Assembly (NCBI GenBank): GCA_024231905.1
Contig: JAAEQC010000202.1
Location: 5,422-69,421, forward strand
Reading direction: 5' to 3'
Origin: a bacterium
GTDB lineage: Bacteria; Krumholzibacteriota; Krumholzibacteriia; LZORAL124-64-63
Length of the DNA: 64,000 nucleotides
A program made the position numbers and the translations under genes. Position 1 is the stretch's first letter, and the number at the start of each line of letters is the position of its first letter. The notes below the pieces were generated by a model that was not told the DNA's origin, ran no database searches, and saw only the letters and a list, made by a program, of their open reading frames with translations. Of this stretch, positions 13,585 to 63,135 are shown piece after piece.

Positions 13585-16059
13585 TCAGCGCACGAGCGCC
13601 ATCCGCCCCGTCAGCGCCGATCCCCCGAAGCACAGGCGCGACAGATAGACGCCGGACGCAACCTCGCCTCCCGACCGGTCCCGTCCGTTCCAGACCGCCT
13701 CGTACCTTCCTTCGGACCGGGTCTCGTCCACGAGGCGGGCCACGAGGCGCCCCTTGATGTCGTAGATGTCCAACCTGACGAGACCGGCTACCGGGATCTC
13801 GTAGCTGATCGTCGTCTGGGGATTGAACGGATTCGGGGCGCACGGCAGCAGCTGCAGGGCGTACGCAGTAGCCCCGGGTATTCCGGAGGCGCCGTCGTTG
13901 CTCGCACCCGGCGTCGGCGTCGCGTAGAACGACCAGGATGCCGCGCCGTCCGGTGTGCGGCCCTCGCTGACGTTGCTCGTCTGCGCGTCGAACACGTAGC
14001 TGTCGATCACTTCGTTCCCGGCGGCCAGGCGGCCGAACAAACCGATCTCCTCGCCGCTGCCGCCGAGCTTGAAATCGGCGTGGAGAGGACCGTCGGAGCC
14101 GTCGCTGTCGCACCACACGAGGAGGAAGTCCCCGGCCCCCAGCAGCGTGTCGGGGAACGCCCACTGGGTCGTCAGGGCCAGATCGTCCGTCAGGAACAAG
14201 CCGCCCATCTCGACCGCCTCGAGGCCGGGGTTGTAGATCTCGACCCAGTCCTCGTACTCGCTGGCCTCGTCCTGGATGCCGGCGTCGTTCAGGGCCACGA
14301 ATTCGTTGATCCACAGGACGATGGATTCAGGCTCCTCGGGATTCAGATTCTCCGCGCCCGGAGTCGCCAGCGACAGCATCTCCCAGTCGCCGGTTCCGTC
14401 GGACCAACGCCCCCAGGGAACGTCGCTCGCGAGGGCGGGGAAGGTCACCTGGTCGATGATCACCGCGCCATCGGTGAGGTAGATACTCTCGCCGTCGGCG
14501 TCGAGCTTGAACGGGGCGTGCAGATCGCCCTCGGCCGTCTCCCCGTCCGCCCAGACGACCACGTATTCGCCCGGGGCCAAGGTCATCACCGGGAAGGCGA
14601 AGTCCGGGGTGCCCTCCAGGAGGTCGGTCAGGCCCAGGCCACCCAGGTCGATGCTCACCGATCCCGTGTTGGCGATCTCGATCCAGTCGTCGTAGTCACC
14701 GGCCTCGTCGGCGACAGTGGCGTCGTTGGACGCCATCACCTCGTTCAGCACCAGGCCCGCCACGGGCGTCCAGGTGCCGATCAGGCCCGACAGATAGTTG
14801 TAACGCGCCGTGACGAAGGTCCCGAGGGCGGGAATCGGCCGGCCGCCCGGTCCTCCGCTGGAGGCGTAAATGGTCGATGTCATGCAGTTCTCGAAGTCGG
14901 TAGTCGAGAACATGGTGTTGGGGTCGGTGTAGACGTACGGGCGGATCAGGTCCCGCAGTTCCTCCATGCGCGCGGTCAGGGTCGTCGGTTCGGCCGCCCC
15001 GGCCATGAGCTTCTGCATGTGTCCCAGGTAGACGTCGACGTACTGGGGAACCGACCACAGATTCTCCGCCAGGGGACGCTCCTCGCCGTACTGGGTGTCG
15101 ACCCAGTAGGGACTCAGCTGCTGCATCTGGGTCGTGGATAGGCCGTACATGTTGAAGATGCCCCAGGCCTCGTTCTGGTCCCACTTGGTGAAGACGAAGC
15201 GGTCGTCCAGGTCCCGGTGGTAGAAGTAGTAGTTGGCGCAACGGCCCGTGTAGCTATCCAGGTTCACCGTGTAATTGTCCACCGCCAGCATGGCCAGGGC
15301 CGAGTTGACGTCGAGCCGGCCATGCAGGCTGTCGGGCAGGGCCGCCGTGGAGGTGTTGTCGACCTGGTCGATGAAGTCCACCAGGTCGGACCAGTCGTTT
15401 GCCGTCTCGTTGGTCTTCAATTCGTAGTTGTCGTAGTAGGAGGACTCGGCGGCGCCCAGGTATTCCATGGTCCCGTAGGGTTCTCCCTTCCACAGGTTGC
15501 CGTCCTCGCTGGCGCCCCAGCGGCTCTCGATGAACTCCTGGTCCTGCTGCTCGACGATGAGATAGAGGCCCCAGTAGGTGCCGTTGATGTACACGGCGGC
15601 GAAGTTTGAGCGGCAAGTGGCCATGCCCAGGGCGTCGCACAGCTCGTAGGTGGTCTTCTCCCGGACGTAGCTGGGATCGAGGTGGCAGTTGTTCAGGCTG
15701 AACTTGTCCAGGCCGTCCACTTCCTGGCCGGCCACGAACTCGTCGATGTCCAGCTTGAAGGACTTCTTGAGCCCGTAGTAGCCCCAGTAGCTGCTGTTAC
15801 CCTTGAAACGCACACCGATGGTCGACAGGTGGGTCGCGTCCCAGTCGAAGGCAGCCTCGATGTAGGGGGGATCGTCGTAGTCCTCGAAGTTCGTGGTCAG
15901 CTGATCCCACCAGTCCGCCTGGTCGAAGGTCAGGTGGATCTCGTGGACGGCGTCGCCGTCGAAGAGGGGATGGGAGGCCGGAGTCAGGGCGGCGCCGGCG
16001 TCTCGGCTCGCGCCGAAGAGTGCGATCGCGACGAGGGCGAGCAGCGTTGCCTGTTTCAT
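13585..16059 (-). CDS. Secreted CotH-domain protein with two lamin-tail-like (LTD) domains and a T9SS-type C-terminal sorting domain
   Basis: Signal peptide MKQATLLALVAIALFGAS; CotH motifs (RFKGNSSYWG, DPSYVREKTT); two LNE(V/F)...DWIEI(A/Y)N LTD repeats; C-terminal NPFNPQTTISYEIP...IYDIKGRLV...ASGVYLSRL. Confidence 0.75.
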   Translation of the reverse strand: MKQATLLALVAIALFGASRDAGAALTPASHPLFDGDAVHEIHLTFDQADWWDQLTTNFEDYDDPPYIEAAFDWDATHLSTIGVRFKGNSSYWGYYGLKKSFKLDIDEFVAGQEVDGLDKFSLNNCHLDPSYVREKTTYELCDALGMATCRSNFAAVYINGTYWGLYLIVEQQDQEFIESRWGASEDGNLWKGEPYGTMEYLGAAESSYYDNYELKTNETANDWSDLVDFIDQVDNTSTAALPDSLHGRLDVNSALAMLAVDNYTVNLDSYTGRCANYYFYHRDLDDRFVFTKWDQNEAWGIFNMYGLSTTQMQQLSPYWVDTQYGEERPLAENLWSVPQYVDVYLGHMQKLMAGAAEPTTLTARMEELRDLIRPYVYTDPNTMFSTTDFENCMTSTIYASSGGPGGRPIPALGTFVTARYNYLSGLIGTWTPVAGLVLNEVMASNDATVADEAGDYDDWIEIANTGSVSIDLGGLGLTDLLEGTPDFAFPVMTLAPGEYVVVWADGETAEGDLHAPFKLDADGESIYLTDGAVIIDQVTFPALASDVPWGRWSDGTGDWEMLSLATPGAENLNPEEPESIVLWINEFVALNDAGIQDEASEYEDWVEIYNPGLEAVEMGGLFLTDDLALTTQWAFPDTLLGAGDFLLVWCDSDGSDGPLHADFKLGGSGEEIGLFGRLAAGNEVIDSYVFDAQTSNVSEGRTPDGAASWSFYATPTPGASNDGASGIPGATAYALQLLPCAPNPFNPQTTISYEIPVAGLVRLDIYDIKGRLVARLVDETRSEGRYEAVWNGRDRSGGEVASGVYLSRLCFGGSALTGRMALVR

Positions 16060-16226
16060 GTCGGGGTACCTCGCTTGTTGGGCGCTTTGCGGCGACGACG
16101 GACATATCACGGCCGAACCCGCGAGTCCCCGATTCCTTTCAGTGTTTTTTGAAACGCGTGATTTTATTGTGACTGTATAAGAACGGGACCCCTTGGATCA
16201 GGGACCCCGTTCGATCATGCGGTTCT

Positions 16227-17530: not shown

Positions 17531-17944
17531 CTACTCCTGTCCGGTCTGATAGACCGCCAGCAACGAAGTGGATGCCTGGCCACTCCACACAGTCACGCTC
17601 TCGGACCACGACGACTCCGCAGACGACTCCTCGGCGGCGATCCGGATCGGCCCCACCAGGAATCCCAGGATGATGCCCGCCGCGCAAGCTGCGAGGCCGA
17701 AAGCGGGCCGGAGCCGGGACTCCTTCGCGCGGCCGGGCCGCACCCGGTGCCACACGGTTCGGGGCAGTTCCGGCGTCGGAGACGCGGCCAGCAGTCCGGT
17801 CATGGCCGCCAGTTCCTCCAGTTCGGTCCGGCAGGTCGGACAATCCTCGCAATGGGCGGCCACGGCGGCGTCTTCGTTCGCGGGAAGCTCGCCGTCGTGG
17901 TAAGCCTGCAGCACGTGCCCGGCCGGGTGTCGCGTTTCGTTCAT
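17531..17944 (-). CDS. Anti-sigma factor, zf-HC2 type, with C-terminal TM
   Basis: HCEDCPTC motif and hydrophobic stretch AACAAGIILGFLV. Start overlaps the sigma gene stop. Confidence 0.7.
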   Translation of the reverse strand: MNETRHPAGHVLQAYHDGELPANEDAAVAAHCEDCPTCRTELEELAAMTGLLAASPTPELPRTVWHRVRPGRAKESRLRPAFGLAACAAGIILGFLVGPIRIAAEESSAESSWSESVTVWSGQASTSLLAVYQTGQE

Positions 17945-18498
17945 CCCTCATCCCTCCGTGCAGCAAGGTCCTTGCGCAGGGCGGACATGCCCCGGTGCAG
18001 CAACATCTGCACCGAAGCGACGGTCGTACCCATGGTGTCGGCGATCTCCTGGTAGCTCAGGTCGTGGTACTGCTTCAGAACCAGGGCCTGGCGCTGCCGT
18101 TCGGGCAGACGGGCGACGGCCTCCTGGACGAGGTCCCGTTCCTCCTTGCCCGTCAGATCGGTCAGGGCGTCCGGGTCCCGCGCCGGCGCGTTGTCGTAGT
18201 CGTCGGTCAACGGCAGCCAGCGCAGGATCTTGCGCCGCCGCAAGCGGCTGCGGGCCTGATTGCCGGCGATGCGGAAGAGCCAGCTCTGGAACTTCCCCTC
18301 GGGCCGGTACCGGTCCGCCGCCTTGATCAGCTTCATGAACGAGTCCTGACACAGGTCCTCCGCTTCCTCCGGCGATCCCAGCATGCGGACCAGGAAGGCG
18401 AACACCGGGCGCTCCCACCGCTCGACGATGATTCGCAGGGCATTCTCGTCGCCGCCGACGTAGTCGGTCATCAGTCTGTCGTCGGTGCGGTCGGTCAT
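17941..18498 (-). CDS. ECF (RpoE-like) RNA polymerase sigma factor
   Basis: Sigma-70 region 2 (FLVRMLGSPEEAEDLCQDSFMKL) and region 4 (LSYQEIADTMGTTVASVQMLLHRG). Confidence 0.85.
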   Translation of the reverse strand: MTDRTDDRLMTDYVGGDENALRIIVERWERPVFAFLVRMLGSPEEAEDLCQDSFMKLIKAADRYRPEGKFQSWLFRIAGNQARSRLRRRKILRWLPLTDDYDNAPARDPDALTDLTGKEERDLVQEAVARLPERQRQALVLKQYHDLSYQEIADTMGTTVASVQMLLHRGMSALRKDLAARRDEG

Positions 18499-44104: not shown

Positions 44105-45190
44105 CTAGCGGAGCAGGGTCATGGAGCGGTGGCTCACCTGTCCGCCGGCTTGGAGCCGCAGCAGGTAGACGCCCGATCCCACGGCCCGGCCCGCGGTGTC
44201 GGTGCCGCGCCAGGTGGTCTCGTGGTCGCCGGCCGTGGCCGTTCCCGAGTGGAGCTGCCGCACCAGGCGCCCGCGCAGATCGACCACAGCCAGGTCGGCG
44301 TCGCCGTCCGCAGCCAGGGACCAGCGGATGACCGTGGCCGGATTGAAGGGATTGGGCGTGACCGAGGCGATATCGGCGGCGAGGGCCGACGGCGCGTCGG
44401 TCCCGGAGACGTCCATGGCCACCATGGCCGCCGCCGCCGCGTACCAGGCCAGGGCCATGCGCTCACTTCCCGCCGCATTCAGGTGCCCGCCGTCGGAGGA
44501 GTAGTCCGGATTCAGCATCTGATAGGACTCGCCCCCGCTCTCGAAGAGCACCGGCGTACCATCCGGCTTGTGGCACTCGATATCGGCCACGTCCAGCAGG
44601 ATGAGTCCCTTGGCCGCACAGTGCTCGCGCACCACGTCGTTGAAGCGGTTGATACTCACGTTGAACGAGGAGTCGCCGAACCGCAGCGGCATGGTCGCGT
44701 ACACGAAGATCGTGCCGGGGAACTCGGTCTCCAGCTGAGTCATGGAATCCAGGTATGGTTGGGGATCGGCACGGTCGTCGTCATAGCAGAATTTGTTGAG
44801 GACGATGTCGACCGCCGGCCGGCTCCAACCCTCGGTGCGGAGCGAGGTCTCGAACTGGTCGATCTTCTCCTGCCAGCCCGGGTTGCCGCGGTAGGATTCG
44901 TACACCGTTCCCGGGGTCGTGGTCGCCGGCGCCGAAGACCCGGGCGCGACGGTCTCGTACGCGATCTGGTAGCGGTCCGGATCCGCGGCGTGAAGGTCGC
45001 GCAGCCCGATGACCATGTTCCAGCCGACGGAGGCATGGGCGAAGAACCAGCGCTGCTGGCCCACCTTTTCCATGACGTCGCCGGGCAGATGCTTCGTCTG
45101 GTCGACGAAGTTGTGATCGATGATGATGGCCGCGGCCGGTTGAACGAGGCAGACGGACAGCAGCAGGGTCCACAGGAGGGAACGGGTCAT
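44105..45190 (-). CDS. Secreted protein (possible SGNH/esterase-like N-domain) with T9SS-type C-terminal sorting domain
   Basis: Signal peptide; C-terminal ...TPNPFNPATVIRWSLAADGDADLAVVDLRGRLVRQL...GSGVYLLRL. Confidence 0.55.
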   Translation of the reverse strand: MTRSLLWTLLLSVCLVQPAAAIIIDHNFVDQTKHLPGDVMEKVGQQRWFFAHASVGWNMVIGLRDLHAADPDRYQIAYETVAPGSSAPATTTPGTVYESYRGNPGWQEKIDQFETSLRTEGWSRPAVDIVLNKFCYDDDRADPQPYLDSMTQLETEFPGTIFVYATMPLRFGDSSFNVSINRFNDVVREHCAAKGLILLDVADIECHKPDGTPVLFESGGESYQMLNPDYSSDGGHLNAAGSERMALAWYAAAAAMVAMDVSGTDAPSALAADIASVTPNPFNPATVIRWSLAADGDADLAVVDLRGRLVRQLHSGTATAGDHETTWRGTDTAGRAVGSGVYLLRLQAGGQVSHRSMTLLR

Positions 45191-51243: not shown

Positions 51244-53103
51244 CTACGGCGCACTCTCGACCACCTGCTCGGTCGTCCCTGCCGTGGCCGCCTCTACCAG
51301 CCAGTGGCGCAACCGGGCCGAGTCGTCCACGGCGCCGATGCGCTCCAACTGCTCCGGGCTGATCTCCACTCCGCGGGCTTCGAGCAGGGTCACGACGCTC
51401 TCGGCCAGGGCCCGCGCCTCCTGCTGCGCCGCCTGCTCGGTGTCCTGCTTGCGGGCAATCTCTGCCGGCACCGGGCGCATCCGGTAGCGGTCGCCAGTCG
51501 CGGCAACAATGGTCTGTAGCCACTCCTGCGGGTAGCCCTCGAAGCGGGGCTTGCCGAACTCGTCCTTCACGTTGCCGTCGAGGTACTTGTAGAGCAGCTC
51601 GTCGAAGAGGCGGGTCCAGCGAGCCACGGTTTCGTTGCCGGCCGTGGCGGTATACTGCGTCAGGTAGTCCCGGGCCAGGCGGGGCGATTGCTCATAGAGC
51701 GCGACCGCCGCCGCGTCCACCTCGGGCACCTCGCCCAGGAAGCGACCCTCCAGCTCCTGCTGCACGCGCCGGATGTCGACGATCATATCCGCGTAGCGCG
51801 AGTAGGCGTAGTTAGCGACGCGGTTGAAGGCCCAGAACGCCGCGTCGTAGTCGACGTCGTGGTACGAGCCGGTGCCCACGCGAAACGAGTAAGGCGCCTC
51901 GGTGATGCCGGCGTAGGCGGGGAAGTAGACGGTGGTGTAGGTGTCGTCGACGCCGAACCAGTTGATGCCGCCGATGGGGTCGGGCAGCCAGGATCGCATC
52001 TGGGCGACGAATGAGAAGCCGGTCTGCTGGGTGGAGACAGCGCGCTCGTGGAAGTAGCGCTCGCCGTCAACCTCCCAGCGCATGGGCCGCCAGCGGTAGG
52101 GCAGCTTGTAGGGGCCGGCGCCGATGTCGGTGGTCATGTCCAGCGCCGTGTCCTCGTAGTGGTCGCGCATCAGGCCCATGACGTCGGCCACGGTCAGCTT
52201 CTTCGCGGGACGGATCCACAGCGGCACGGGCTCGGCGCCGGGTTCGCCCATGATCCAGCCCTCGCCGTGGTCGCCGCCGGGAGCGGTGCGCTCGAACATG
52301 CACCACACGCGGGCCTCGCAGGCGCGGCGCGTGCCGAAGGCGTCGGGGTCGTACACGTCGGCGAAGCTGAAGTCCTCGTCTGCGCCCTGGTACCAGCCCT
52401 GCTCGCGGGCGAAGTCGATCACGTCCGGGGCGTAGAGCGCGTTCTCGTCGTCAGCCAGGGGGAATTGGCGGATGCGGGCAGCGTTGGCGTGGCCGCAGAT
52501 GTAGCCGTCCGGCACGCGGCGGGCCACCCAGACGGCGCCCTTCTCCTCGGGGCCCTTGCCGATCAGGTCCATGATCCAGACCTCGTCCGGATCGCCGACG
52601 GAGAACGTTTCGCCCTTGCTGTAGTACCCGTACTCGTCCACCAGCGCGGCCATGATCTCGATGGCCTCGCGGGCGGTCCGCGCGCGCTGCAGCGTGACGT
52701 AGATGAGGCTGCCGTAGTCGAGGATCGCATCGAAATTGCGCAGCTCGGTGCGGCCGCCGTAGGTGGTCTCGGCCATGGTCACCTGGTGCTCGTTCATGTT
52801 GCCGACCACCGCGTACGTCACCGGCGCCTGCGCGATCTCGCCCAGGTACTTGCCCGTATCCCACTCGTAGATGGGCATCATCGTGCCCGGGGCGTGCCGG
52901 CCCGGCGGCCGGTAGTACAGCTCGCCGTAGAAGCCGTGGGAGTCAGCCGTGTAGGTGACCATGGTCGATCCGTCGGCCGAGGCGTCGTTGGTGATCAGGA
53001 AGTTCGTGCAGGCCGACGCCAGGGGAGTGGCGGTGAGGGCGACCGCGAGCGCCAGGGCGCCCACTACGAGCGGGACGGGGCGAGCGGGAATGAGGGTAGG
53101 CAT
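51244..53103 (-). CDS. Peptidase C69-family dipeptidase, secreted
   Basis: Signal peptide ends ...PLASA followed by the CTNFL N-terminal Cys nucleophile. About 620 aa, C69 length. The track extension to 53259 is rejected. Confidence 0.7.
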   Translation of the reverse strand: MPTLIPARPVPLVVGALALAVALTATPLASACTNFLITNDASADGSTMVTYTADSHGFYGELYYRPPGRHAPGTMMPIYEWDTGKYLGEIAQAPVTYAVVGNMNEHQVTMAETTYGGRTELRNFDAILDYGSLIYVTLQRARTAREAIEIMAALVDEYGYYSKGETFSVGDPDEVWIMDLIGKGPEEKGAVWVARRVPDGYICGHANAARIRQFPLADDENALYAPDVIDFAREQGWYQGADEDFSFADVYDPDAFGTRRACEARVWCMFERTAPGGDHGEGWIMGEPGAEPVPLWIRPAKKLTVADVMGLMRDHYEDTALDMTTDIGAGPYKLPYRWRPMRWEVDGERYFHERAVSTQQTGFSFVAQMRSWLPDPIGGINWFGVDDTYTTVYFPAYAGITEAPYSFRVGTGSYHDVDYDAAFWAFNRVANYAYSRYADMIVDIRRVQQELEGRFLGEVPEVDAAAVALYEQSPRLARDYLTQYTATAGNETVARWTRLFDELLYKYLDGNVKDEFGKPRFEGYPQEWLQTIVAATGDRYRMRPVPAEIARKQDTEQAAQQEARALAESVVTLLEARGVEISPEQLERIGAVDDSARLRHWLVEAATAGTTEQVVESAP

Positions 53104-53732
53104 GGCGTGTCGCTCCTGGACGGTGGCGGTGGCAAGTGGGGGCCGAGGTGATGTCGCCCTGATTGTCCGATCTCCGGCCAGGCAACTCTCTCGCTCTTGT
53201 CGTACTCGACCGGCGGCATATACCGCAAGCTCAAGTGCGAGCGCCGGCGATTGTACCACGCCTCGATCGCCCCGTCAGATCCTCGCGAGCCTGGTCCCGC
53301 CGGGGGCGTGACGGGCGGCTTTGTCGGCTGGAGGCTCTTGTTAGACGACCTACCTAATTCAAGCCATTCAAAGAGGCGAGATGCAGATTCTCGACGCCGA
53401 CCTTGAACTCACCGCAGTGTAGCTCCACTACAACTTCCTCGCTCGGCCAAATCGAAGGATACAAGTTGAACCGATAGACGCCGGGCCCGATGCCTGAGAA
53501 CTCGTCTATGCTCTCGCCACTCGTGCCGACTAATTCCTGGCAATCGCCAGCTTCCCTCCGGACAAGTTCCGAAACCAAGGAATCGCAACTCGACAATTGA
53601 GCTTGCTAGCTCACCTGATTCCATGAGACCCCGGAAATACTACTCCTTCTCTCGCTAGATATTAGCAGAAGTGTTCTTAGATATTAGACTTGAAACTGTC
53701 TCACTCTGGCTGGCGGGAAACAGTCCATCCCC

Positions 53733-53770
53733 CCCAACAATAAAACGGCCCCGGAACCATCCTCCGGGGC
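53733..53770 (-). terminator. Rho-independent terminator of the giant secreted-protein gene
   Basis: Minus strand reads GGCCCCGG-aggatggtt-CCGGGGCC followed by GTTTTATTGTT, 36 nt after the stop at 53806. Confidence 0.6.
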
Positions 53771-53805
53771 CGTCTCCCCCTCCATAGGCGCGATGGGGTA
53801 ACCGC

Positions 53806-56800
53806 CTACTTGACGAGGGTCACCTTCATCAGATCCGCCACCCCGGCCGCTCGCAGTCTCGCCAGGTACACCCCGCTGGCTGCACGCGAACCCTGAGCAT
53901 CCAGACCGTCCCATACCGCCTCGCCGGGACCGGCCCGCCGGTCTTCCATGACAAGCGTCCGCACGAGGCGTCCCTGCAGGTCGTACAGGGCCAGGTGGCA
54001 GGGTCCGTCCTGCTCCATCTCGAAAGAAATCGTCGTGGTGGGGTTGAAGGGGTTGGGCGAGGCTGCCACGATGCGCGTGGCCTCGATGGCCGGCACTTCT
54101 TCCTCCACGCCACTCACGCCCTCGGCCACCCACAGGGAGTAGCTGCCTTCCTTGGCCAGTTCGCCGGCGTCCGTCTTCCACACCGCCAGGCAGGCGCTGC
54201 CGCTGACGGGCACGTTGACGATCATGCGCTCGGTCACGCCGTCGGGCTCGAGCCAGGTGATCTCGCCCTCGAGGGCGTCGTCCTTGCCGAAGTACTCGGC
54301 ACCCTGGTAGAAGCTCATGCCCCAGTCCACGCCGGTGCCGTTGTCCTTCAAGGTGATCAGATGCGGACCCGGGTCGAGCAGGAACTCGTGGAGATTCAAC
54401 ATGCGGCCGGCGCCCATGGCATAGGGACCCATCTCGCCGGGACCGGCGATGCCGCCCCAAGTGGATCTTACTTCCTGCAGGTCGTAGCTCGTCAGGAACT
54501 GGTCCACGTCGTCCAGGACGCCCACGTCGTGGGGCACGTTGTCGGCCAGGCGGTCGTTCACCAGCACGAAGTCGATCTGGCCGTCGCCGGCGAAGCTCTC
54601 CGCGAGTACCGACGGGCCGAACCCATCCTGGGTGCCCGAAAGCGCCGTGTGGAGTTGCAGATCCGTGTTCACGAACGTGCTCGGGGGCATGACCGCGGCG
54701 CCGGTCCACCAGCGGTTGCCGCCGATGGGCGGAATGTAGGGCACGCGCCAGCCATCACAGTTCCAGTACAGGGTCTCGCCGCCGTCACAGGCGTCCCAGC
54801 CGCCCTCACGGTCGGGCAGGCGCTCGAAGCCGGTAACGTTGACGGAAGCGTTGGTGGGCAGCGTGGGCGGCGACCAGCAGTACTGGCGCGCCGAATCGTT
54901 GTTCCGCTCGACGCTCTCGTCCAGGTCGTCCAGGTAATCCATGTTCAGGGTCAGGGTGTGGCGGCCGCCGGGGATGGTCCAGGGCGTGCCGGCGCGATCG
55001 AGATTGCGCACGTTCCGTGAGCTACCCGCAGCCAGGGACGAGAACTGGCGCAGGCCCATGTCGCCCATGCCGTCGATGTCCAGGCCCCAGGACACGGTGT
55101 CCGCGCTGGCCAAACCGGCGTTGCGGGCGCCGTAGTTCAGCCAGGTCAGTGGCTGGCCGCCGTGCAGCGTATCCGGCAGCGGGCAGTTGAACAACGCGGA
55201 CGTGTCGTGAGGCTGGGGCACGATTGGTGCGTGCCAGCCCGTATACGTAGTAGGCTCCAGATCCGGCCGTGCCTTGTACAGCCCCACGTTCACCGCCAGG
55301 CTCGACGGGTGCTCCACCCGGTTGCCGTACACGACGCAGCAGTACTCGCCGGTCACCGCGAGATTCATGTCGATGCGGGCCAGACCCTCGGCGTCGGTGG
55401 CCACCGGGTCGAGCAGATCGGCCAGGTCACCATTCTCGAAGTCCGGCAGCAGCCAGCCCATGTGGACCGGACCGTCTTCCGGATCGCTGTACAACGTGAG
55501 CGTGGCCGGGCCCAGGTCGCCCGGGCCCACGTGGAACTGGAACATGGCCAACCGCTGGACGGTGTAAGGCGTCGACGGCTCGATGCCGAAGTCGAAGGGA
55601 TAGGGGCTCTCGTGGAGGTGGGCGATGCGGTAATCCTCGGTGAGGGCTGACCAGAAGTTGATGATCCCCACGTCCCAGGGCACGTGCCCCATGGTGTGGG
55701 TGTTGACCAGGAGAGCATGGAGATCGCTGTCGTAGCTGGTGGCGGCCACATTGAAACCGAAGGCCGCCTCAGGGTCGTCCGAGGCCGGGTGCAGGCGCAG
55801 CATATAGTTGTTCAGGCCGTCGTCGGACAGGCGCTCGCCCCACACGGCGACCCACTCGTAGCTTGCCGACGGTTGGATCCGTACACCGTCGCAGTGGTGC
55901 CAAGGGAAAGGACCGTACAGGTAGTCCTGGTCGTTGAGCGGCGGCACGGGGCGGGTCCAGGTGGTCAGGGGCGGCAAGTAGTCCCCCTGCCAGCACATCT
56001 GCACCGCGGTGACGTTGTCCGTCTCGTCGGACTCGGCCACCGCATTCAGGGCGTCGGCCCTCACCCGCAGCACGTGGCGGCCGCCGGGCACCTGGTACGG
56101 TCCGAAGTTGTAGGAGCCGTTCCAGTCGTAGGGCGGGATGGTCCACAGGCTGCGCGAGTCGAGGAAGTCGCCGTCCAGGTAAAGATCCATGCGCGAGGCG
56201 CCGGCCGTGACCGGCCCCGTGTTCCGGTAGCAGGCGTTGAGCCAGGTGGAGTCGGCCTCGCCGATCAGGAAGGTCGGCGCAGGCACGTTCGTCCAACTGG
56301 CATCGTCGACGCTGCGCGGCACCAGGGACCCCGCCCAACCCGGTTTCACGTCGAACTCGAAATTCGGCAGGTTGGAGAAGTTGGCCGTGGCGCCGTTGGT
56401 GCCGTCGTAGGGGGTGTCGAAGGTGGCCGAGAGAACCGTGGCGTCGCTGAACTCCACGATGATCGTTCCGCCCATGAGATCGGAGCCGTAGGGCATGCCG
56501 GTGGCGCCCATGTCCAGATCCATGGTGAAGCGGAAGTAGTCGCCGCCGTCGAAGCCCGTGAAGGTCGAACCGAAGTCCTGGGTGTCCGTCCCCGCGGGCA
56601 CGTCGAAGTAGAAGCTGTAGGACGTCACCCCGTCGTTCTGGGGCGAGCACATGGACGTACCGTCGGCGTCGAGCCAGACGTTCGTCGCGTTCCAGTCCCA
56701 CCAGGCGTCCACCAGGGTCACGCCTTCATTGGTGGTGAAGGTGATGTCGATCCAGTTGCCGCCCTCGCCGCAGTTGCTGGCGGTGGACGACCCTTGGATC

Positions 56801-56862
56801 ACGGCGGACGCGGACGACGCGGCCAGCATCAGGGCCAAGAGAATCATGACGAACGGTTTCAT
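53806..56862 (-). CDS. Giant (~1018 aa) secreted protein with CARDB-like domains and T9SS-type C-terminal sorting domain
   Basis: Signal peptide MKPFVMILLALMLAASSASA; CARDB-like segments (...GGRHVLRVRADALNAVAESDETDN...; ...GGRHTLTLNMDYLDDLDESVERNNDSA...); CTD NPFNPTTTISFEM...LYDLQGRLV...ASGVYLARL. Confidence 0.7.
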   Translation of the reverse strand: MKPFVMILLALMLAASSASAVIQGSSTASNCGEGGNWIDITFTTNEGVTLVDAWWDWNATNVWLDADGTSMCSPQNDGVTSYSFYFDVPAGTDTQDFGSTFTGFDGGDYFRFTMDLDMGATGMPYGSDLMGGTIIVEFSDATVLSATFDTPYDGTNGATANFSNLPNFEFDVKPGWAGSLVPRSVDDASWTNVPAPTFLIGEADSTWLNACYRNTGPVTAGASRMDLYLDGDFLDSRSLWTIPPYDWNGSYNFGPYQVPGGRHVLRVRADALNAVAESDETDNVTAVQMCWQGDYLPPLTTWTRPVPPLNDQDYLYGPFPWHHCDGVRIQPSASYEWVAVWGERLSDDGLNNYMLRLHPASDDPEAAFGFNVAATSYDSDLHALLVNTHTMGHVPWDVGIINFWSALTEDYRIAHLHESPYPFDFGIEPSTPYTVQRLAMFQFHVGPGDLGPATLTLYSDPEDGPVHMGWLLPDFENGDLADLLDPVATDAEGLARIDMNLAVTGEYCCVVYGNRVEHPSSLAVNVGLYKARPDLEPTTYTGWHAPIVPQPHDTSALFNCPLPDTLHGGQPLTWLNYGARNAGLASADTVSWGLDIDGMGDMGLRQFSSLAAGSSRNVRNLDRAGTPWTIPGGRHTLTLNMDYLDDLDESVERNNDSARQYCWSPPTLPTNASVNVTGFERLPDREGGWDACDGGETLYWNCDGWRVPYIPPIGGNRWWTGAAVMPPSTFVNTDLQLHTALSGTQDGFGPSVLAESFAGDGQIDFVLVNDRLADNVPHDVGVLDDVDQFLTSYDLQEVRSTWGGIAGPGEMGPYAMGAGRMLNLHEFLLDPGPHLITLKDNGTGVDWGMSFYQGAEYFGKDDALEGEITWLEPDGVTERMIVNVPVSGSACLAVWKTDAGELAKEGSYSLWVAEGVSGVEEEVPAIEATRIVAASPNPFNPTTTISFEMEQDGPCHLALYDLQGRLVRTLVMEDRRAGPGEAVWDGLDAQGSRAASGVYLARLRAAGVADLMKVTLVK

Positions 56863-56975
56863 GGCTAATCCCCCCATCGGCGTGCGGCGGGCCTCGGTCG
56901 ATTCAGAGAGGCCCGGAGTGTGTTCCCACCAGGAGGAACGCGACGGGGCGACGACGATCACAGGAACGAGAAAAT

Positions 56976-59609
56976 TCAGCGGCGGGCGCGGATCCAGGCT
57001 CCGATGGCGAACAGGGCCAGGGCGGCCGCCCAGGGCCAGCGCCGAGAGCGGCGCTGCAGGGGCACGGTGATGTCGCCGTCGCCCACCAGGACGAAGGCCG
57101 CCCAGTGGCGCGGCGCACAGGTCTCCGGGTCCAGGAAGCAGGCGTGGCGGGCCCGATCGAGGGCGGCGGCCGCCGTCAGGCCGTCGGCCAGGCCCTCGTA
57201 GAATTGGGTCGTAACGCGGAAGGCGACGGCGTCGTCCACCGGCCAGAGGGTGGCCAGCACGGCCGGGACATTGGCGGCCAGGAAACCTCCCGCCAGTCCG
57301 ATCAGGCCTTCGCCTCCCACCACACGCGTGCCGGCGGTGGTGCAGCCGGCCAGCACGGCCAGGCGCGCGTTCAGAGGGAGAGCGGCCACGTCGGCGGCCC
57401 GCAGGACGTCGTCCGGATCCGGCCCCAGGGTGATACCCGTCAGCCAGGGCTGATGGACATGGAGCATGGTGTGGGCAGCCAGGTGAAGGACGCCGGCCTC
57501 GGCCCATTCCACCTCCACCGGCGTACGCACGTGGCGCAACTGCCCGGTCAGCCAGGCGATTTCCTGCTCCGCCCCGGGCAAAGGCCCACCGCCCCCGGAA
57601 TCCGGTCCGGCGACCGCCAGGATCGACGCAGGACCGGTCGCGGCGGGAGGCTCGTGCCGGAGACGCGCCAGCACGCCCGCTCCCGGAATACGGGTCGATG
57701 CACCACGCCAGGGCAGCAGCGCCGCCGGCAAGCGGTGCCAGCTGCCGTCGGGGCACCACCACACGGTGCCGGCGTCGGCCGCCAGCCGCCGGATCGAAGC
57801 CGGCCAGGCCGCCACCAGGTCACCGGCCAGCCGCACGGCCGGTCCCGGGTCGTCCAGGGCGGGACTGCGCACCACGTCGGCCAGACGCCGCAGCCGAGGC
57901 TCGATCTCCCGCCGGCCGGGAATCGCAGCCACGAAGGCCGTGTCCCGGGTGACACAGAACAGGACGCTCAAGCGGTCCCCTTCCACCAGGTCGAGGAAGA
58001 CCTCATCCGGCTTGAGCACCTGACGACGGAAATCCGCGAGATCCGGCGCGGCCACCGCACCGCCACCGGCCCCTGGTCCGAGCATGCGCTCGCGCAGGGT
58101 GCGCGCCTTGTACCGTTGGATCCATTCCCAGGCCGCTTCGAGGCCCCCGGGGGCCTCCATACATACCGCCGCCGCGTTGGCGAACAAGCTGCCGGACACG
58201 GTGCCCCGGTGCTCGCGCCACACGGGATCGGTGGGCCAGGCCCGGACCCGTTCCCAGTTGGCGATGGCCCGGCCGAAGACCGCCAGGGCCGAGTCGGGGC
58301 GATCCAGGGCCGCCTCGGCGCGGGCCAGGTGGGTGAGCAGGACCACGAGTTCGGCCTCGCCGCCGGCCTCCCGGGCCGCCAGGATCGCCGGCCGCAACCG
58401 GGCCGCCGCTCCGGCCGGATCCCCGCTGTCCACCAGCGCCACGCCCAGCAGAGCGGACACCCGCAGTTCGAGGGAGGTGGCCCCCGCGCCGTCCTCCAGC
58501 ACCCGCGCCAGCGTCGTCGCCGCAGCCACCAGACTATCCCGCTCGATCAGGGCCCGCGCCAGGCGCAGACGGGTCTCCGTGGCCAGCAGACGGGATAGCA
58601 TCTCCCCCGCGCCCAGAACCCGCCGGCAATGGTCCGCCGCCGCACCGGGACGCCCCTGCTCCAACCAGGTATCCGCCAGGCTGTTGCCGGCCAGCACCTC
58701 CAGATCGCGCAGACCATACTCGCGGCAGACGGCGAGTACCGAGTCGAAGACCGCCTCCGCCTCGACGTATCTGCCCTGCATGACTCGGGCCTTGGCCAGG
58801 TCGATGCTCGGCACCAGCCCTTCCCGCCGGTGCCCGCTCTCCCGGTGGATGGCCACGGAACGGGCGAAGAGATCCACTGCCCGACCGGGATCGCCGAGCA
58901 TCAGATCCAGGCGTCCGAGCTGATCCAGGGCCATGGCCTCGTTCACCGCGTCACCGGCGCCCTCGACCAGGGCCAGCACGTTGGCGAAGGCCGTGCGTGC
59001 CCCCCGGAAGTCGCCGGCCTGACGCAGGGCCAGTCCGCGTCCGTTCCAGGCCCACACGGCGCCCCGGGTTTCCCCGTACCGCTGCAGGACGCCCGCCGCC
59101 CGGGCATAGGTCGCACCCGCCTCCACAGCCCGCCCCTGGAGGTAATGGCCGTAGGCGATTCCAACCCAGGCCCAGCCCAGGTGCAGCGAGTCGGCGGCGG
59201 CTTCGGCTCTTCGTGCCAGTTCGGCGTAGAGATCCGTCGCTTCGGCGCCGCGCCCCTGCGTACCCACCGAGACACCCAACCAGCGCAGGCATTGCAGGTG
59301 GCGGAGGGTGTCGCGGCGGACGACGGCCACCGCCATGCCCTCGCGCAGATCGCCCTCGGCCTGGCGCGCCATGCCGAAGCTCGCGCGGGTCGCACCCCGG
59401 ATCAGCAGGAGGTTCAGGAGGCCCGTCGTGTCGCCTGCAGCGCGGGCGGCCGTGATGGCCGGGCCCGCCAGGCTGTCGACCATGTCCGGACGACCAGCGG
59501 AGCGCCAGGCGAGCAGGGAATCGGGGAGACCGTCACGAGCGGCGGGAGGCTGTGCCGCGGCGGACGCAGCCAGGAGCAGGAGCGGCAGCAGGCGGACCGC
59601 AAGGCGCAT
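56976..59609 (-). CDS. Periplasmic TPR-repeat plus CHAT (caspase-like protease) domain protein with C-terminal TM anchor
   Basis: Signal peptide MRLAVRLLPLLLLAASAAAQ; about 450 aa of TPR-like helical repeats; CHAT domain (...VLHLAAHT... catalytic His, ...LAGCTTA... Cys); C-terminal WPWAAALALFAIGAWI hydrophobic helix. Confidence 0.75.
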   Translation of the reverse strand: MRLAVRLLPLLLLAASAAAQPPAARDGLPDSLLAWRSAGRPDMVDSLAGPAITAARAAGDTTGLLNLLLIRGATRASFGMARQAEGDLREGMAVAVVRRDTLRHLQCLRWLGVSVGTQGRGAEATDLYAELARRAEAAADSLHLGWAWVGIAYGHYLQGRAVEAGATYARAAGVLQRYGETRGAVWAWNGRGLALRQAGDFRGARTAFANVLALVEGAGDAVNEAMALDQLGRLDLMLGDPGRAVDLFARSVAIHRESGHRREGLVPSIDLAKARVMQGRYVEAEAVFDSVLAVCREYGLRDLEVLAGNSLADTWLEQGRPGAAADHCRRVLGAGEMLSRLLATETRLRLARALIERDSLVAAATTLARVLEDGAGATSLELRVSALLGVALVDSGDPAGAAARLRPAILAAREAGGEAELVVLLTHLARAEAALDRPDSALAVFGRAIANWERVRAWPTDPVWREHRGTVSGSLFANAAAVCMEAPGGLEAAWEWIQRYKARTLRERMLGPGAGGGAVAAPDLADFRRQVLKPDEVFLDLVEGDRLSVLFCVTRDTAFVAAIPGRREIEPRLRRLADVVRSPALDDPGPAVRLAGDLVAAWPASIRRLAADAGTVWWCPDGSWHRLPAALLPWRGASTRIPGAGVLARLRHEPPAATGPASILAVAGPDSGGGGPLPGAEQEIAWLTGQLRHVRTPVEVEWAEAGVLHLAAHTMLHVHQPWLTGITLGPDPDDVLRAADVAALPLNARLAVLAGCTTAGTRVVGGEGLIGLAGGFLAANVPAVLATLWPVDDAVAFRVTTQFYEGLADGLTAAAALDRARHACFLDPETCAPRHWAAFVLVGDGDITVPLQRRSRRWPWAAALALFAIGAWIRARR

Positions 59610-59616
59610 CAGGGAC

Positions 59617-60252
59617 TCACTCCCGGGCCGGTCGCAGGGCGACGATGCCGCTGCGGGCGATGGTGTCGCCCCGGCTGACGGCGAAGGCCTGGCAGTAGAC
59701 CGCCGTCGCGGGCAGGTCCGTCACGGATTTCTCGAACCCGGGACGGACTTCCTGGTGTCGCTCGACCTCGGCGAGACCGGCGTCCAGCAGGGCGAAGACG
59801 AAGGTTTCCGCCTCCGGGGCTGCGGGCCAATCACACCGCAGGAAACCCTCGCCGGTGGTTACGGCCAGGCCGACGGCCTCGTCGCCGCGCACGTACTCGC
59901 CCACCCGGGGTCCGGTGCCGCCGGGCCCGCGCCACAGCTCGCTCGCGGTCAGGCCGACCGCGCACACGGCCAGCACCGCCGCCAGGGCGTACCAGTTGGC
60001 CCGGCGGCGCGTGGGCCGGGTGACGGCGCCGGGCGGAGTCGCCAGGGCGGACTGCAGGCGTCCGGCCAACTCGGCGTCGGCGGCGACCAGGTCCGGCAAA
60101 TCCGAAGTGTCTCCCGGCTCCAGGAAGAGGCCCTGGGCCGCGGCGAGACCCCGGCAGCGGGGGCAGTCTTCCAGATGCCGCCGGCGCGGATCGCCCGTGG
60201 GCAATCCAGCCAGATCGGCCAGTTCGTTCATGGGGTGACAATGCTCCATCAT
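59617..60252 (-). CDS. Anti-sigma factor, zf-HC2 type, single TM, ~110-aa periplasmic domain
   Basis: HLEDCPRCR zinc motif; TM ANWYALAAVLAVCAVGLTASELW; stop 8 nt before the CHAT start; start overlaps the sigma stop. Confidence 0.7.
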   Translation of the reverse strand: MMEHCHPMNELADLAGLPTGDPRRRHLEDCPRCRGLAAAQGLFLEPGDTSDLPDLVAADAELAGRLQSALATPPGAVTRPTRRRANWYALAAVLAVCAVGLTASELWRGPGGTGPRVGEYVRGDEAVGLAVTTGEGFLRCDWPAAPEAETFVFALLDAGLAEVERHQEVRPGFEKSVTDLPATAVYCQAFAVSRGDTIARSGIVALRPARE

Positions 60253-60905
60253 CCTTCGCCTCCATCTTCGTCGCCGGCGCGGGCCGCCACGGCCGCACGC
60301 AGCTTGCGCCGGGCCCTTTGCAGCACTCCCCGGGCGCCGGATTTCTCGTCGAGAGCCAGGTGCCGGGTGATCGCGTCAACCGACAGTCCCTCGTGGCACC
60401 GCAGCCAGACGGCCGTGCCTTCCTCGGGCGAGAGCGTATCGCGCACCAGTCCCAGCAGATCCTCGGCGGCCAGGCGTCGTTCCAGGTCCTCGTCGGGCGC
60501 CGGAGTCGGATCGGCCACCAGTTCGATCACTGCCTCCGTGTCCAAGGGCACCCGGCGCCGGCGCAGTTCGCTCAGACACCGGTTGCGGGCGATGGTGAAG
60601 AGCCAGGCGCCGAAGCGACCGTCGTGATCGTACTCGTCCAGGCGGCCCCAGGCGCTGAGCAGCACTTCCTGCGCCGCGTCGAGAGCCGTCTCCCGGTCGC
60701 CCACGACTCTCCAGCACCAGACGAGGACTCGTTGCCGGTACCGCGCCAGCAGCCGGGAAGCGGCCTGGCGGCCGACGTCACCGTCCGGGTCCCGCTGGTA
60801 GGCGAGGACCAGTTCGCGATCCGTACCGTCGCCACCCGTAGCCGGATCGACGACTTGTCGGATCTCCCTCCGAACTGTGGAACGCAGCATCATCGTTGTC
60901 ATCAC
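60249..60905 (-). CDS. ECF RNA polymerase sigma factor
   Basis: Region 2 (LLSAWGRLDEYDHDGRFGAWLFTIARNRC) and region 4 (LSVDAITRHLALDEKSGARGVLQRARRKL). True start is probably an internal Met. Confidence 0.8.
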   Translation of the reverse strand: MMTTMMLRSTVRREIRQVVDPATGGDGTDRELVLAYQRDPDGDVGRQAASRLLARYRQRVLVWCWRVVGDRETALDAAQEVLLSAWGRLDEYDHDGRFGAWLFTIARNRCLSELRRRRVPLDTEAVIELVADPTPAPDEDLERRLAAEDLLGLVRDTLSPEEGTAVWLRCHEGLSVDAITRHLALDEKSGARGVLQRARRKLRAAVAARAGDEDGGEG

Positions 60906-61080
60906 ACATGAAAGGTGAATTCGCGCGGCGCCGTGCGGACGCCGACCCCATTGAACCGATCATATCACCTGGAGGGGCGGGACGCGCACGATTTAAAGAC
61001 CACGTGCGCTGGTACCACGGAAGAAGCGCGTTGGGTGAGATGTCCGTCCCGACCTGACCCCACCGACGGAGGCCGTCGTC

Positions 61081-62379
61081 ATGAAGAAGATGATCGTCAT
61101 AACCATCCTGCTGGCCGTGGCCGCCCTCGTGGGCTGGCGCGTCACCGCGAGCAACGGCCACGCTCCGGCCCAGTACCGGTTCGTGGAAATCACCCGGGGC
61201 GACCTGGCAGCGGTCGTCGCGGCCACCGGCACCCTCGAACCCGTCACCACCGTCCAGGTGGGCACCCAGGTGAGCGGCATCATCGAGAACGTGCTGGTGG
61301 ACTACAACGACCCGGTCACCGCCGGCCAGATCGTCGCCAACATCGACACGACCCTGCTGGCGGCCGCCGTGGCCTCCAGCCGGGCCCAGGTCGAACGGGC
61401 CGAGGCCGATCTGCGCCAGGCCGAGCGCGAGTACCGCCGCCTGGACGCCCTCCACGCCGAGAAGCTGATCTCCGAGAGCGAGCACTACACCGCCCTCTAC
61501 AACCTGGACCTGGCCCGGGCCGGCCTGAAATCGGCGCGCGTAGACCTCGAGCGCACCGAGATCAACCTGGATTATGCGACCATCGATTCCCCCATCGACG
61601 GTATCGTGGTCCAGCGTTCGGTCGACCCGGGCCAAACGGTCCAGTCCTCCTTCTCGGCGCCGGAGCTCTTCCTCATTGCCGGCGACCTGACGGCCATGCA
61701 GATCCTCGTGTCGGTGGACGAGAGCGACATCGGCCAGATCGCCGAGGGGCAGGACGTGAGCTTCACGGTCCAGGCCTACCCCGACGACCTCTTCGCCGGC
61801 ACGGTCCGGCAGGTCCGCCTCCAGTCGGTGACCACCGAGAACGTGGTCAACTACGTGGCGGTGGTGGACGTGGCCAATCCCGACGGCCGCCTGCTGCCGG
61901 GCATGACCGCCACCGTGGACTTCGTGGTAGACCAGGCCACGGACATCTTCTACGTACAGAACGCCGCGCTCCGCTACCGCCCGGACCAGGAGGTCATGAT
62001 GGCGGTCATGGAGCGCAAGCGCGCCGCCCGGCAATCCCGCGGCGGCACCGCGCGTCCGGACAGTGCCCGGGCTTCCGAGGGAGCGGGAGCCGGCGCGCGT
62101 CCGGGCGGTGGCCAGGGCGGCGGAATCGCGGCCATGGCCTCCGGCGGACTCCCGGACGGCATGGGTATGCTGTGGACCGTCGACGAGTCCGGCGAGATCG
62201 ACCTGATCATGGTGCGCACGGGTATCAGCGACGGTACCAACACCCAGGTGCGCGGCCGCAACCTCGAAGCCGGCACCCAGATCATCGCCGGGGTGTCGCG
62301 ATCGACCACCGCCACGACCAGTTCACCCTTCCAGCAGAACCAGTCGGCCGGCAGTCCCCCGCGGCCGGGCGGCTTCTAG
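61081..62379 (+). CDS. macA: Efflux transporter periplasmic adaptor subunit (HlyD/MacA family)
   Basis: N-terminal TM, coiled-coil hairpin, biotinyl-lipoyl-like and beta-barrel segments typical of MFP. Confidence 0.8.
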   Translation: MKKMIVITILLAVAALVGWRVTASNGHAPAQYRFVEITRGDLAAVVAATGTLEPVTTVQVGTQVSGIIENVLVDYNDPVTAGQIVANIDTTLLAAAVASSRAQVERAEADLRQAEREYRRLDALHAEKLISESEHYTALYNLDLARAGLKSARVDLERTEINLDYATIDSPIDGIVVQRSVDPGQTVQSSFSAPELFLIAGDLTAMQILVSVDESDIGQIAEGQDVSFTVQAYPDDLFAGTVRQVRLQSVTTENVVNYVAVVDVANPDGRLLPGMTATVDFVVDQATDIFYVQNAALRYRPDQEVMMAVMERKRAARQSRGGTARPDSARASEGAGAGARPGGGQGGGIAAMASGGLPDGMGMLWTVDESGEIDLIMVRTGISDGTNTQVRGRNLEAGTQIIAGVSRSTTATTSSPFQQNQSAGSPPRPGGF

Positions 62380-62388
62380 GAGACGGTC

Positions 62389-63135
62389 ATGAACGAGCGC
62401 GACGTCATCCGCATCGAGGGCCTGACCCGCACCTACGTCATGGGCACCAACCAGGTCCACGCCCTGGCCGGTATCGACCTGACCGTGAGCGCGGGCGAGA
62501 TGGTGGCCGTCATGGGCGCCTCGGGCTCGGGCAAGTCCACCCTCATGAACATGATCGGCTGCCTGGACCAGCCCACGTCCGGATCCTACGAACTGGACGG
62601 CGAGCAGGTGGCCGACCTGGGCCGCAACCGTCTGGCCGACCTGCGCAACCGGCGCCTCGGCTTCGTCTTCCAGGGCTTCAACCTGCTGTCGCGCACCAGC
62701 GCCCAGGAGAACGTCGAGTTGCCGCTGCTGTACGACCGCAGCGGACGCGGCGGGGACTCGGCGTCCCGGGCGCGCCGGGCCCTCGAGCGCGTGGGACTGG
62801 GCGACCGGACGGGCCACCTGCCCAACGAGCTCTCGGGCGGCCAGCAGCAACGGGTGGCCATCGCCCGCGCCCTGGTCACGGAGCCGTCGCTACTGCTGGC
62901 GGACGAGCCCACCGGCAACCTGGACACGCGCACGAGCATCGAGGTGCTGGCCCTCTTCCAGGAGCTCAACGACCAGGGCCTGACCGTGGTCATGGTCACC
63001 CACGAAAAGGAGATTGCCCGCTACGCCAAGCGCATCGTCGAGCTGCGCGACGGGCTGATCGTACGGGACGTACCGGTCCACGACAGGGGCCACGCCGCCG
63101 CCGATCTGGGCCGCATCATGGAGGGCGCCGCATGA
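62389..63135 (+). CDS. macB: MacB/LolD-type ABC transporter ATP-binding protein
   Basis: Walker [10 protein letters not shown], signature [15 protein letters not shown], Walker [13 protein letters not shown]. Confidence 0.9.

Follow-up and report, generated by a model that had tools for sequence, protein, structure and literature searches.

The stretch analysed here, hereafter the window, is 64 kb of a Krumholzibacteriota contig (JAAEQC010000202.1), and its minus strand carries a cassette (53806-60905) in which a sigma factor of the extracytoplasmic function (ECF) type and a membrane anti-sigma factor precede a tetratricopeptide repeat (TPR)-CHAT caspase-like protease and a large CARDB-repeat protein. 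Four minus-strand open reading frames (ORFs) were read in it from the ORF list and from hidden Markov model (HMM) matches, with the domains described in an earlier note that had been made from the sequence alone. The features to which we refer below are the following:

60249..60905, minus strand: ECF sigma factor, 218 amino acids (aa) as the longest ORF, true start uncertain
59617..60252, minus strand: anti-sigma factor, 211 aa, single-pass, CHCC zinc-binding
59884..59892, minus strand: V121-R122-G123 of the anti-sigma factor, candidate site-1 cleavage site proposed from its conservation
56976..59609, minus strand: TPR-CHAT caspase-like protease, predicted periplasmic, 877 aa
57471..57473, minus strand: codon of the catalytic His713 (LHLAAHT motif), assigned from invariance in homologues
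57342..57344, minus strand: codon of the catalytic Cys756 (VLAGCTT motif), assigned from invariance in homologues
56982..57038, minus strand: putative membrane anchor at the C-terminus of TPR-CHAT, seen as helix 858-876 in the AlphaFold2 (AF2) model and followed by RARR
53806..56877, minus strand: CARDB protein, ~1020 aa, with a signal peptide and a C-terminal FlgD_ig/type IX secretion system (T9SS)-like domain
60881..60906, minus strand: P1, promoter-like motif TGTGAT-N15-GCGTT at or overlapping the annotated sigma start
56937..56962, minus strand: P2, the other promoter-like copy of TGTGAT-N15-GCGTT, located past the stop of CHAT and before the start of CARDB
53735..53776, minus strand: intrinsic terminator 3' of the CARDB gene, from sequence reading and RNA folding

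The first gene product matches Pfam Sigma70_r2 (E 8.5e-17) and the NCBIfam model TIGR02937 for ECF sigma factors over residues 48-204 (69.8 bits against a cut-off of 42.9), contains sigma regions 2 and 4 only, and has ECF sigma factors as its nearest solved structures in the PDB; no group-specific NCBIfam model reached its cut-off with it. Its stop codon overlaps the anti-sigma start as ATGA, as the earlier note had read, and 7 nt lie between the anti-sigma stop and the TPR-CHAT start. The tight spacing that had been claimed for all four genes thus holds for the first three, but the CARDB gene starts 98-113 nt past the CHAT stop, at an ATG at 56877 or 56862 (MKPFVMILLALMLAASSASA..., encoding MKPFVMILL..., a signal peptide), and P2 lies within this gap.

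The second gene had been described as a zf-HC2-like anti-sigma factor, a description borne out by a CHCC-type zinc motif (C5/H26/C30/C33, HxxxCxxC), one transmembrane (TM) helix at residues 83-108 and ~103 periplasmic residues, although no Pfam match was obtained and a profile search of the PDB with this protein found nothing. Such a CHCC domain encoded next to an ECF sigma factor is predicted to bind it. The AF2 model (pLDDT 78 overall) consists of a cytoplasmic helical domain, the TM helix, a disordered linker at 109-124, with pLDDT below 50 at residues 112-121, and a beta-sandwich at 125-205 (pLDDT 91-97) that resembles FN3/Ig domains according to Foldseek. A profile search of 1.84 billion representatives returned 1208 anti-sigma clusters, of which the best 150 measured 100-266 aa, nearly all 200-250 aa, and to judge by these lengths none of the best 150 is fused to a TPR-CHAT domain. 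Among 143 representatives with a mutual identity of at most 50%, the CHCC ligands were retained in 138-142. A second conserved element, the (L/V)-R-G motif (V121-R122-G123), sits at the junction between the linker and the FN3-like domain, the rest of the linker being variable and disordered: R122 is invariant in 26 orthologues and present in 126 of the 143 representatives, G123 in 115 of them. In the aligned anti-sigma rows from genome loci R122 was found in 49 of 60, most exceptions having LR[GNS] a few residues off. Counted without an alignment, h-R-[GASN] occurred within 45 residues after the TM helix in 86 of 113 sequences, whereas the 45 residues that follow contained it in 10 of 113. We propose (L/V)-R-G as the site-1 cleavage site. 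In a relative (CHAT 37% identical; L006:7241-8020 and L007:766-1545) the anti-sigma factor was not recognised by the anti-sigma HMM, and its periplasmic part gave a weak DUF4384 match in place of the FN3-like domain, so the sensor-side domain appears exchangeable.

The third gene product fits the earlier description of an 877-aa protein with a signal peptide, TPRs, a CHAT domain and a C-terminal TM helix, on Pfam matches, sequence features and the AF2 model alike. CHAT was matched at residues 610-844 (PF12770, E 1.5e-36, 126.7 bits against a cut-off of 24) and several TPR families were matched as well; with the Pfam threshold passed and both His and Cys in place, the domain belongs with the clan CD caspase fold. 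In the monomer model (pLDDT 88.2, pTM 0.79) ~24 TPR-like helices span residues 24-510, the CHAT domain takes up ~535-850 with an alpha/beta fold, and a last helix follows at 858-876; fold matches of the model include separase, Csx29 and gingipains. An intact dyad had been named as a check by the earlier note, and H713 and C756 are invariant in 26 close orthologues and in 86 of 86 wider homologues, as are H709, E683, W722, W789 and D793 in the latter. The signal peptide (LLLLAASAAA-QP) is kept in the 26 close orthologues and a hydrophobic C-terminal helix with a basic tail in 80 of the 86 homologues, the remainder being mostly truncated ORFs; most of the protein is therefore predicted to lie in the periplasm, with a tether in the inner membrane. 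A reading of the C-terminal 'RR-WPWA...RARR' as a sortase-like sorting signal was rejected, as WPW occurs in the close clade only and the TM helix with a basic tail is general, and the tail is treated here as a membrane anchor. NCBI has a 100% identical protein, entitled 'MAG: CHAT domain-containing protein [bacterium]', and the closest relatives are from metagenome-assembled genomes (MAGs) of Krumholzibacteriota.

The three genes are conserved as neighbours. Full-length TPR-CHAT homologues range from 78% down to 35% identity, and eight independent metagenomic contexts retain the sigma factor (168-223 aa), the anti-sigma factor (213-259 aa) and the TPR-CHAT protein, with junctions that are overlaps or a few nt and with differing flanking genes. 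The triad is retained across the loci numbered L001-L010, its order being permuted to CHAT-sigma-anti in L009 and L010. A survey that took a single genome for each GTDB species yielded at least 555 relatives of the TPR-CHAT protein, and the best 79 loci, likewise given L numbers, were inspected with HMMs built from the window family. These loci were arranged as follows:

sigma-anti-CHAT: 26 loci
CHAT-sigma-anti: 32 loci
variant arrangements: 4 loci, namely L076 (an ORF-calling artefact), L064 (divergent), L037 and L068 (CARDB-like gene inserted)
no sigma gene, full flanks present: 9 loci
too short to judge: 9 loci

Of the 70 informative loci, about 60 thus keep all three genes, in one of two orders, and just one more sigma-like ORF was found elsewhere in the loci with a counted arrangement. 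Hosts are Krumholzibacteriota, Eisenbacteria, Latescibacterota and unclassified MAGs, several genomes having two to four paralogous modules each. Across 63 modules the pairwise identities of CHAT and of sigma co-vary (r 0.74), a value that 0 of 999 permutations reached. Given the triad in about 60 of 70 loci, its differing flanks, its two orders and this co-variation, the synteny that the earlier note had asked to see is conserved, and the linkage of sigma, anti-sigma and TPR-CHAT is far beyond chance.

A shared sequence motif ties these genes to a candidate promoter. GGAAC-type ECF promoters were sought by eye in intergenic regions and nothing consistent was seen. A blind search for bipartite k-mers in the regions upstream of the modules gave mostly GC-rich noise, only TGTGA...GCGT exceeding the reverse-strand and shuffle controls, with 14 sequences against 1 in each of the two. 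In the 64-kb window TGTGAY-N15-GCGTY has exactly two matches, P1 and P2, both in the cassette and on the gene strand. Over all loci, a strict pattern (TGTGA-N15-18-GCGT[TC]) gave 41 matches, against 11-20 in shuffles, with a spacer of nearly always 16 nt; 27 of the 31 matches on the module strand were just before the sigma gene or just past the CHAT stop, and 16 loci had it at the sigma position. The matches off these positions lay upstream of a displaced CARDB gene in L001, where the motif moves with that gene, after the anti-sigma gene in L029 and L069, and ~420 nt upstream of sigma in L022. A looser version, in which the -10 element is taken as GT[CT], was present in the 280 nt before sigma in 34 of 68 loci, on the opposite strand in 0 of 68, and in 1.7% of random windows. 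At the module end it was present in 22 of 62 loci and was associated with a downstream gene encoding a FlgD_ig-like C-terminal domain (CTD; 13/9/9/31, Fisher p 0.006); the position of P2 is occupied in L002, L011, L012, L017, L018, L020, L024, L037, L068 and L073. On this sequence evidence we take TGTGAY-N15-GCGTY as the probable promoter signature of the cassette's own sigma factor.

A comparable signature has been described for ECF41 sigma factors, whose promoter is TGTCACA-N16-CGTC, and ECF promoters typically combine a CGTC-type -10 element with a spacer of 16 nt (PMC3426412). The motif found here is likewise bipartite, with a TGT-type -35 element, a 16-nt spacer and a CGTC/CGTT -10 element, and likewise stands at the sigma gene and at a neighbouring target gene (PMC3426412), whereas its -35 word is TGTGAT and the anti-sigma factor is separate; ECF41 sigma factors lack an anti-sigma factor and have a regulatory domain fused at their C-terminus. 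Many distant loci have the ATG of sigma 4-7 nt past GCGTY, which would give a leaderless mRNA. In loci of CHAT-sigma-anti order the CHAT stop codon TGA is often part of TGTGA (L030, L040, L055, L057, L060, L062, L070, L071, L079 and others), and in L052, L053, L058 and L077 the motif is encoded within a conserved cytoplasmic tail, 'R-V-I-S...LP'. Two loci with no detectable neighbouring sigma gene (L049:8559 and L050:8736) have the motif 12-15 nt past the CHAT stop and before CARDB-like genes, which suggests control by a sigma factor encoded elsewhere.

In the product of the fourth gene CARDB is matched twice (E 9.7e-14), and the C-terminus matches FlgD_ig (Pfam, 37.2 bits against a cut-off of 27). 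The T9SS-type CTD claimed for it by the earlier note fell short of its model, TIGR04183 for type A domains giving 17.1 bits against a cut-off of 23. In the closest relatives the gene directly downstream of the module is a CARDB orthologue (L011, L012, L018 and L017; fragmented in L002), and in other relatives this place is taken by an Rce1-like protease or a permease. Of 53 modules, 16 are followed immediately by a large CTD-bearing gene, compared with a flank density of ~0.87 per 10 kb (~9% background), FlgD_ig-like CTDs being common in these genomes (~0.9 per 10 kb of flank). The CARDB gene is therefore a frequent partner of the module, not an obligatory one. As the motif stands at both the sigma gene and the CARDB gene and recurs in this way across loci, the CARDB protein is probably a sigma-dependent output with its own promoter, P2, rather than the product of the last gene of a four-gene transcript; the claim of a regulated output gains by this, and that of four-gene co-transcription is not the best reading. 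The terminator that had been attributed to the CARDB gene is a real hairpin, lying just beyond the 53806 end of the cassette: a 15-bp GC-rich stem-loop at ~53742-53776 is followed by UUUUAUUGUUG, and the hairpin with its U-tract folds with a minimum free energy of -37.6 kcal/mol (z -2.75). An automatic scan for terminators and promoters had reported no terminator, which was revealed by reading and folding the sequence. In L002 and L013 (10792-13858) the CARDB orthologue is split into several ORFs in a long-read MAG assembly, probably by frameshift error and not as a pseudogene, and two further proteins of the window end in a FlgD_ig-like CTD (13585-16110 and 44105-45190, both minus strand).

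The closest structural relative of the TPR-CHAT model is a studied protein. The top Foldseek match in the PDB was DdvA (8rot_A, 8rw5; E 4e-14, 17% identity), with human separase and Csx29 close behind. When the PDB was searched by sequence, neither the whole protein nor its CHAT half nor a 26-sequence profile reached DdvA, the matches being mostly TPR proteins and a marginal one to Csx29, and DdvS was not among the PDB matches of the sigma factor. The fold class of the TPR-CHAT protein is certain; a specifically DdvA-like ancestor is no more than a possibility. DdvA of Myxococcus xanthus is a single-pass anti-sigma factor with a CHCC zinc-binding anti-sigma (ZAS) domain that binds the ECF sigma factor DdvS, and its periplasmic domain of ~900 residues is a TPR-CHAT of separase/craspase type with a canonical His/Cys dyad (Sci Adv 2024, PMC11506125). 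In the same study DdvA without its TPR-CHAT part underwent RseP-dependent degradation, the bulky TPR-CHAT sterically blocking RseP, and its authors suggested a site-1 protease role for CHAT, with each protomer's linker being cut by the CHAT of its partner (PMC11506125). Further marks of DdvA-like anti-sigma factors are an arrow-shaped dimeric assembly and a CHAT without the three-helix active-site motif. The earlier note, which was not aware of a characterised example of the arrangement, had missed this characterised relative.

The window system shares with DdvA/DdvS the ECF sigma factor, the single-pass CHCC anti-sigma factor, the large periplasmic TPR-CHAT with an intact dyad and the flexible juxtamembrane linker, together with the proposed logic of CHAT as site-1 protease and then RseP. 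In DdvA, however, TPR-CHAT is part of the anti-sigma polypeptide, C-terminal to its TM helix, whereas here an ORF of its own encodes it, complete with signal peptide and C-terminal TM helix; the anti-sigma factor of the window ends in an FN3-like domain, so that any cleavage would be between proteins, unlike in DdvA. The hosts differ as well, Krumholzibacteriota, Eisenbacteria and Latescibacterota here and Myxococcota for DdvA, fused proteins like DdvA having been reported just in Myxococcota and one Comamonas (PMC11506125). Again unlike DdvA, there are no neighbours from CRISPR or from cyclic-oligonucleotide-based anti-phage signalling (CBASS), and the local output is a secreted CARDB/CTD protein. 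We do not file the system as a member of the DdvA family because the defining fused architecture is missing, but by analogy it most likely works like one. The locus is a new split, two-polypeptide variant of a TPR-CHAT-linked ECF sigma/anti-sigma switch, in other phyla.

The earlier note had drawn its analogy with type III-E CRISPR, and this is real at the level of logic and fold. In the type III-E craspase, Cas7-11 is joined by Csx29, a TPR-CHAT protease that cleaves Csx30 and thereby affects the ECF sigma factor RpoE/Csx31. That system is cytoplasmic and RNA-guided, whereas the protease described here is predicted to be periplasmic and membrane-anchored, and its partner is a classical ZAS membrane anti-sigma factor in place of Csx30/Csx31. 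No cas genes and no CRISPR array were found in the window, in agreement with the earlier note, and the locus is not of type III-E. A further parallel is the regulated intramembrane proteolysis of anti-sigma factors, known for RseA with DegS/RseP, for RsiW with PrsW/RasP and for FecR-type cell-surface signalling; a single-pass anti-sigma factor, a periplasmic site-1 cut that licenses a site-2 protease and a sigma promoter before neighbouring targets would all have counterparts in the scheme that we propose. The site-1 cut is made in known cases by a serine protease or a metalloprotease, or by self-cleavage of the anti-sigma factor. To our knowledge, a dedicated, co-encoded caspase-fold cysteine protease that acts in trans as a site-1 protease has not been demonstrated so far. 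Neither a paper on Bordetella btrS nor a review of ECF factors proved to be a precedent, as 'chat' occurs in their reference lists only, and an eLife paper on TRADD-N concerns other caspase-plus-ECF neighbourhoods, not this arrangement.

The reading that we prefer is that the TPR-CHAT protein acts in trans as the site-1 protease of the anti-sigma factor. At rest, the cytoplasmic CHCC domain of the anti-sigma factor would hold the ECF sigma factor at the inner membrane, and the exported TPR-CHAT protein, tethered by its C-terminal TM helix, would place its TPR superhelix and CHAT domain beside the linker and FN3-like domain of the anti-sigma factor. The H713/C756 dyad would be activated by a signal in the periplasm, probably a protein that the TPR array binds, and CHAT would then cut the juxtamembrane linker in trans, in our proposal after R122 of (L/V)-R122-G123. 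An RseP-type site-2 protease would destroy the remaining membrane stub and free the sigma factor, which would transcribe from TGTGAY-N15-GCGTY, at P1 for its own operon and at P2 for the CARDB/CTD protein as the main local output. Metacaspases and gingipain R also have the specificity for arginine at the P1 position of the substrate on which such a cut would depend. The same specificity is known for separase from the cited literature. We infer the contact between CHAT and the anti-sigma factor, the R-G cleavage, the involvement of RseP and the reading of the motif by the sigma factor, and we hold the chain as a whole to be somewhat better than an even proposition.

Several points weigh against this site-1 reading. 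Cleavage of the anti-sigma factor by CHAT is something that we infer here, as it was inferred for DdvA, where dyad mutants had no phenotype in unstimulated cells and no cleavage was observed; the phage Mx4, the only one tested, elicited no DdvA autoproteolysis (PMC11506125). The R-G motif borders the folded FN3-like domain, so it could be structural and not scissile. Nine TPR-CHAT loci have no neighbouring sigma gene, and in the 32 loci of CHAT-sigma-anti order the motif lies between CHAT and sigma, so that CHAT is not always in the sigma-dependent unit. Finally, in the window and its close clade (L002, L003, L011 and L012) P1 overlaps the only canonical in-frame starts of the sigma gene (ATG-CGT-T inside the -10 element; 60860-60906), which does not fit simple autoregulation. 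With transcription starting ~7 nt past GCGTT there would be no in-frame ATG, GTG or TTG before sigma region 2; ~35 nt upstream of P1 stands a sequence that resembles an extended -10 element (TGATATGAT). It is possible either that the sigma start is non-canonical or that P1 transcripts in this clade express the anti-sigma and TPR-CHAT proteins without the sigma factor.

The strongest competitor of the site-1 reading would have the TPR-CHAT protein as a partner or co-sensor that binds the FN3-like domain, shielding it from another site-1 protease or presenting it to one, with its own substrates elsewhere, for example the CTD giant. Synteny and co-variation fit such a protein equally well, as do the enrichment of CTD-bearing secreted genes directly downstream, the position of CHAT outside the sigma promoter unit in CHAT-sigma-anti loci, and the behaviour of DdvA, with its steric block of RseP and its silent dyad mutants. 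A dyad kept in all 86 homologues nevertheless speaks against it, the simplest reading of a conserved R-G in the variable linker of an always-adjacent protein is a substrate, and the downstream gene is variable and often absent and thus no universal substrate; we consider this alternative unlikely. Distinctly less probable still is that the protease is merely an output of the sigma factor, working in envelope stress or in the processing of surface proteins without a signalling role. In the window and in 26 other loci CHAT does lie downstream of sigma and anti-sigma in a tight operon behind P1, yet the 32 loci with the opposite order have the motif after CHAT, the DdvA fusion puts TPR-CHAT on the sensing side of the anti-sigma factor, and the identities of CHAT and sigma co-vary across paralogous modules. 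An accidental adjacency of four unrelated genes, to which the replacement of the fourth gene by unrelated ones (Rce1-like protease, permease) in several relatives would lend something, is hardly credible: for the three-gene core it is refuted by a triad that persists with tiny gaps or overlaps among differing flanks and in two orders, and the shared motif ties in the fourth gene too.

The scale of the family, with at least 555 TPR-CHAT relatives in species-representative genomes and ~1200 anti-sigma clusters, gives the site-1 reading a wider bearing. The split module is widespread in uncultured phyla of the FCB (Fibrobacteres-Chlorobi-Bacteroidetes) group and probably tied to secreted surface proteins, not to defence islands. 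A broader and more tentative proposal, to which we give a little less than even weight, is that candidate phyla of this group share a family of tethered, periplasmic caspase-like site-1 proteases acting in trans, cutting at (L/V)-R|G and switching on giant T9SS-like secreted proteins. DdvA is the only studied case of a periplasmic TPR-CHAT signalling to an ECF sigma factor, with no trigger known and no cleavage demonstrated. In the split form the enzyme and its presumed substrate are separate, with candidate cleavage and promoter motifs, and the site-1 hypothesis therefore becomes directly testable in a heterologous host. If true, this would be the first trans-acting CHAT site-1 protease and a tractable system for the still unproven autoproteolysis model of DdvA; it would also give a first way into the regulation of the many giant secreted proteins with a CTD in uncultured Krumholzibacteriota and Eisenbacteria, and extend caspase-fold proteases to envelope signalling outside anti-phage defence.

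The neighbours of the cassette in the window are efflux and peptidase genes. A role in defence was rejected, as PADLOC gave no defence-system match in the window except a weak match to the CHAT domain and the tandem-repeat check found no tandem or CRISPR-like array. The rest of the window showed no further homologue of the TPR-CHAT protein, but at 17941-18498 on the minus strand it encodes another ECF sigma factor (Sigma70_r2 and r4_2), unrelated to that of the cassette. Downstream of the cassette, a stretch of lower GC content (~0.62, roughly 53300-53750) parts it from the gene of a 671-aa Peptidase_C69 protein (51244-53259, minus strand). A MacA/MacB-like efflux pair (HlyD-family adaptor and ABC ATPase; 61081-63135 and beyond, plus strand) diverges from the sigma gene, and in L002 (CHAT 55% identical) efflux adaptor and MacB/FtsX genes likewise lie upstream of sigma. 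In two relatives an Rce1-like (CPBP) intramembrane protease gene adjoins the module (L003:10748-11506 and L008:5082-5873), and its product could have a part in how the C-terminal TM tail or the anti-sigma factor is processed.

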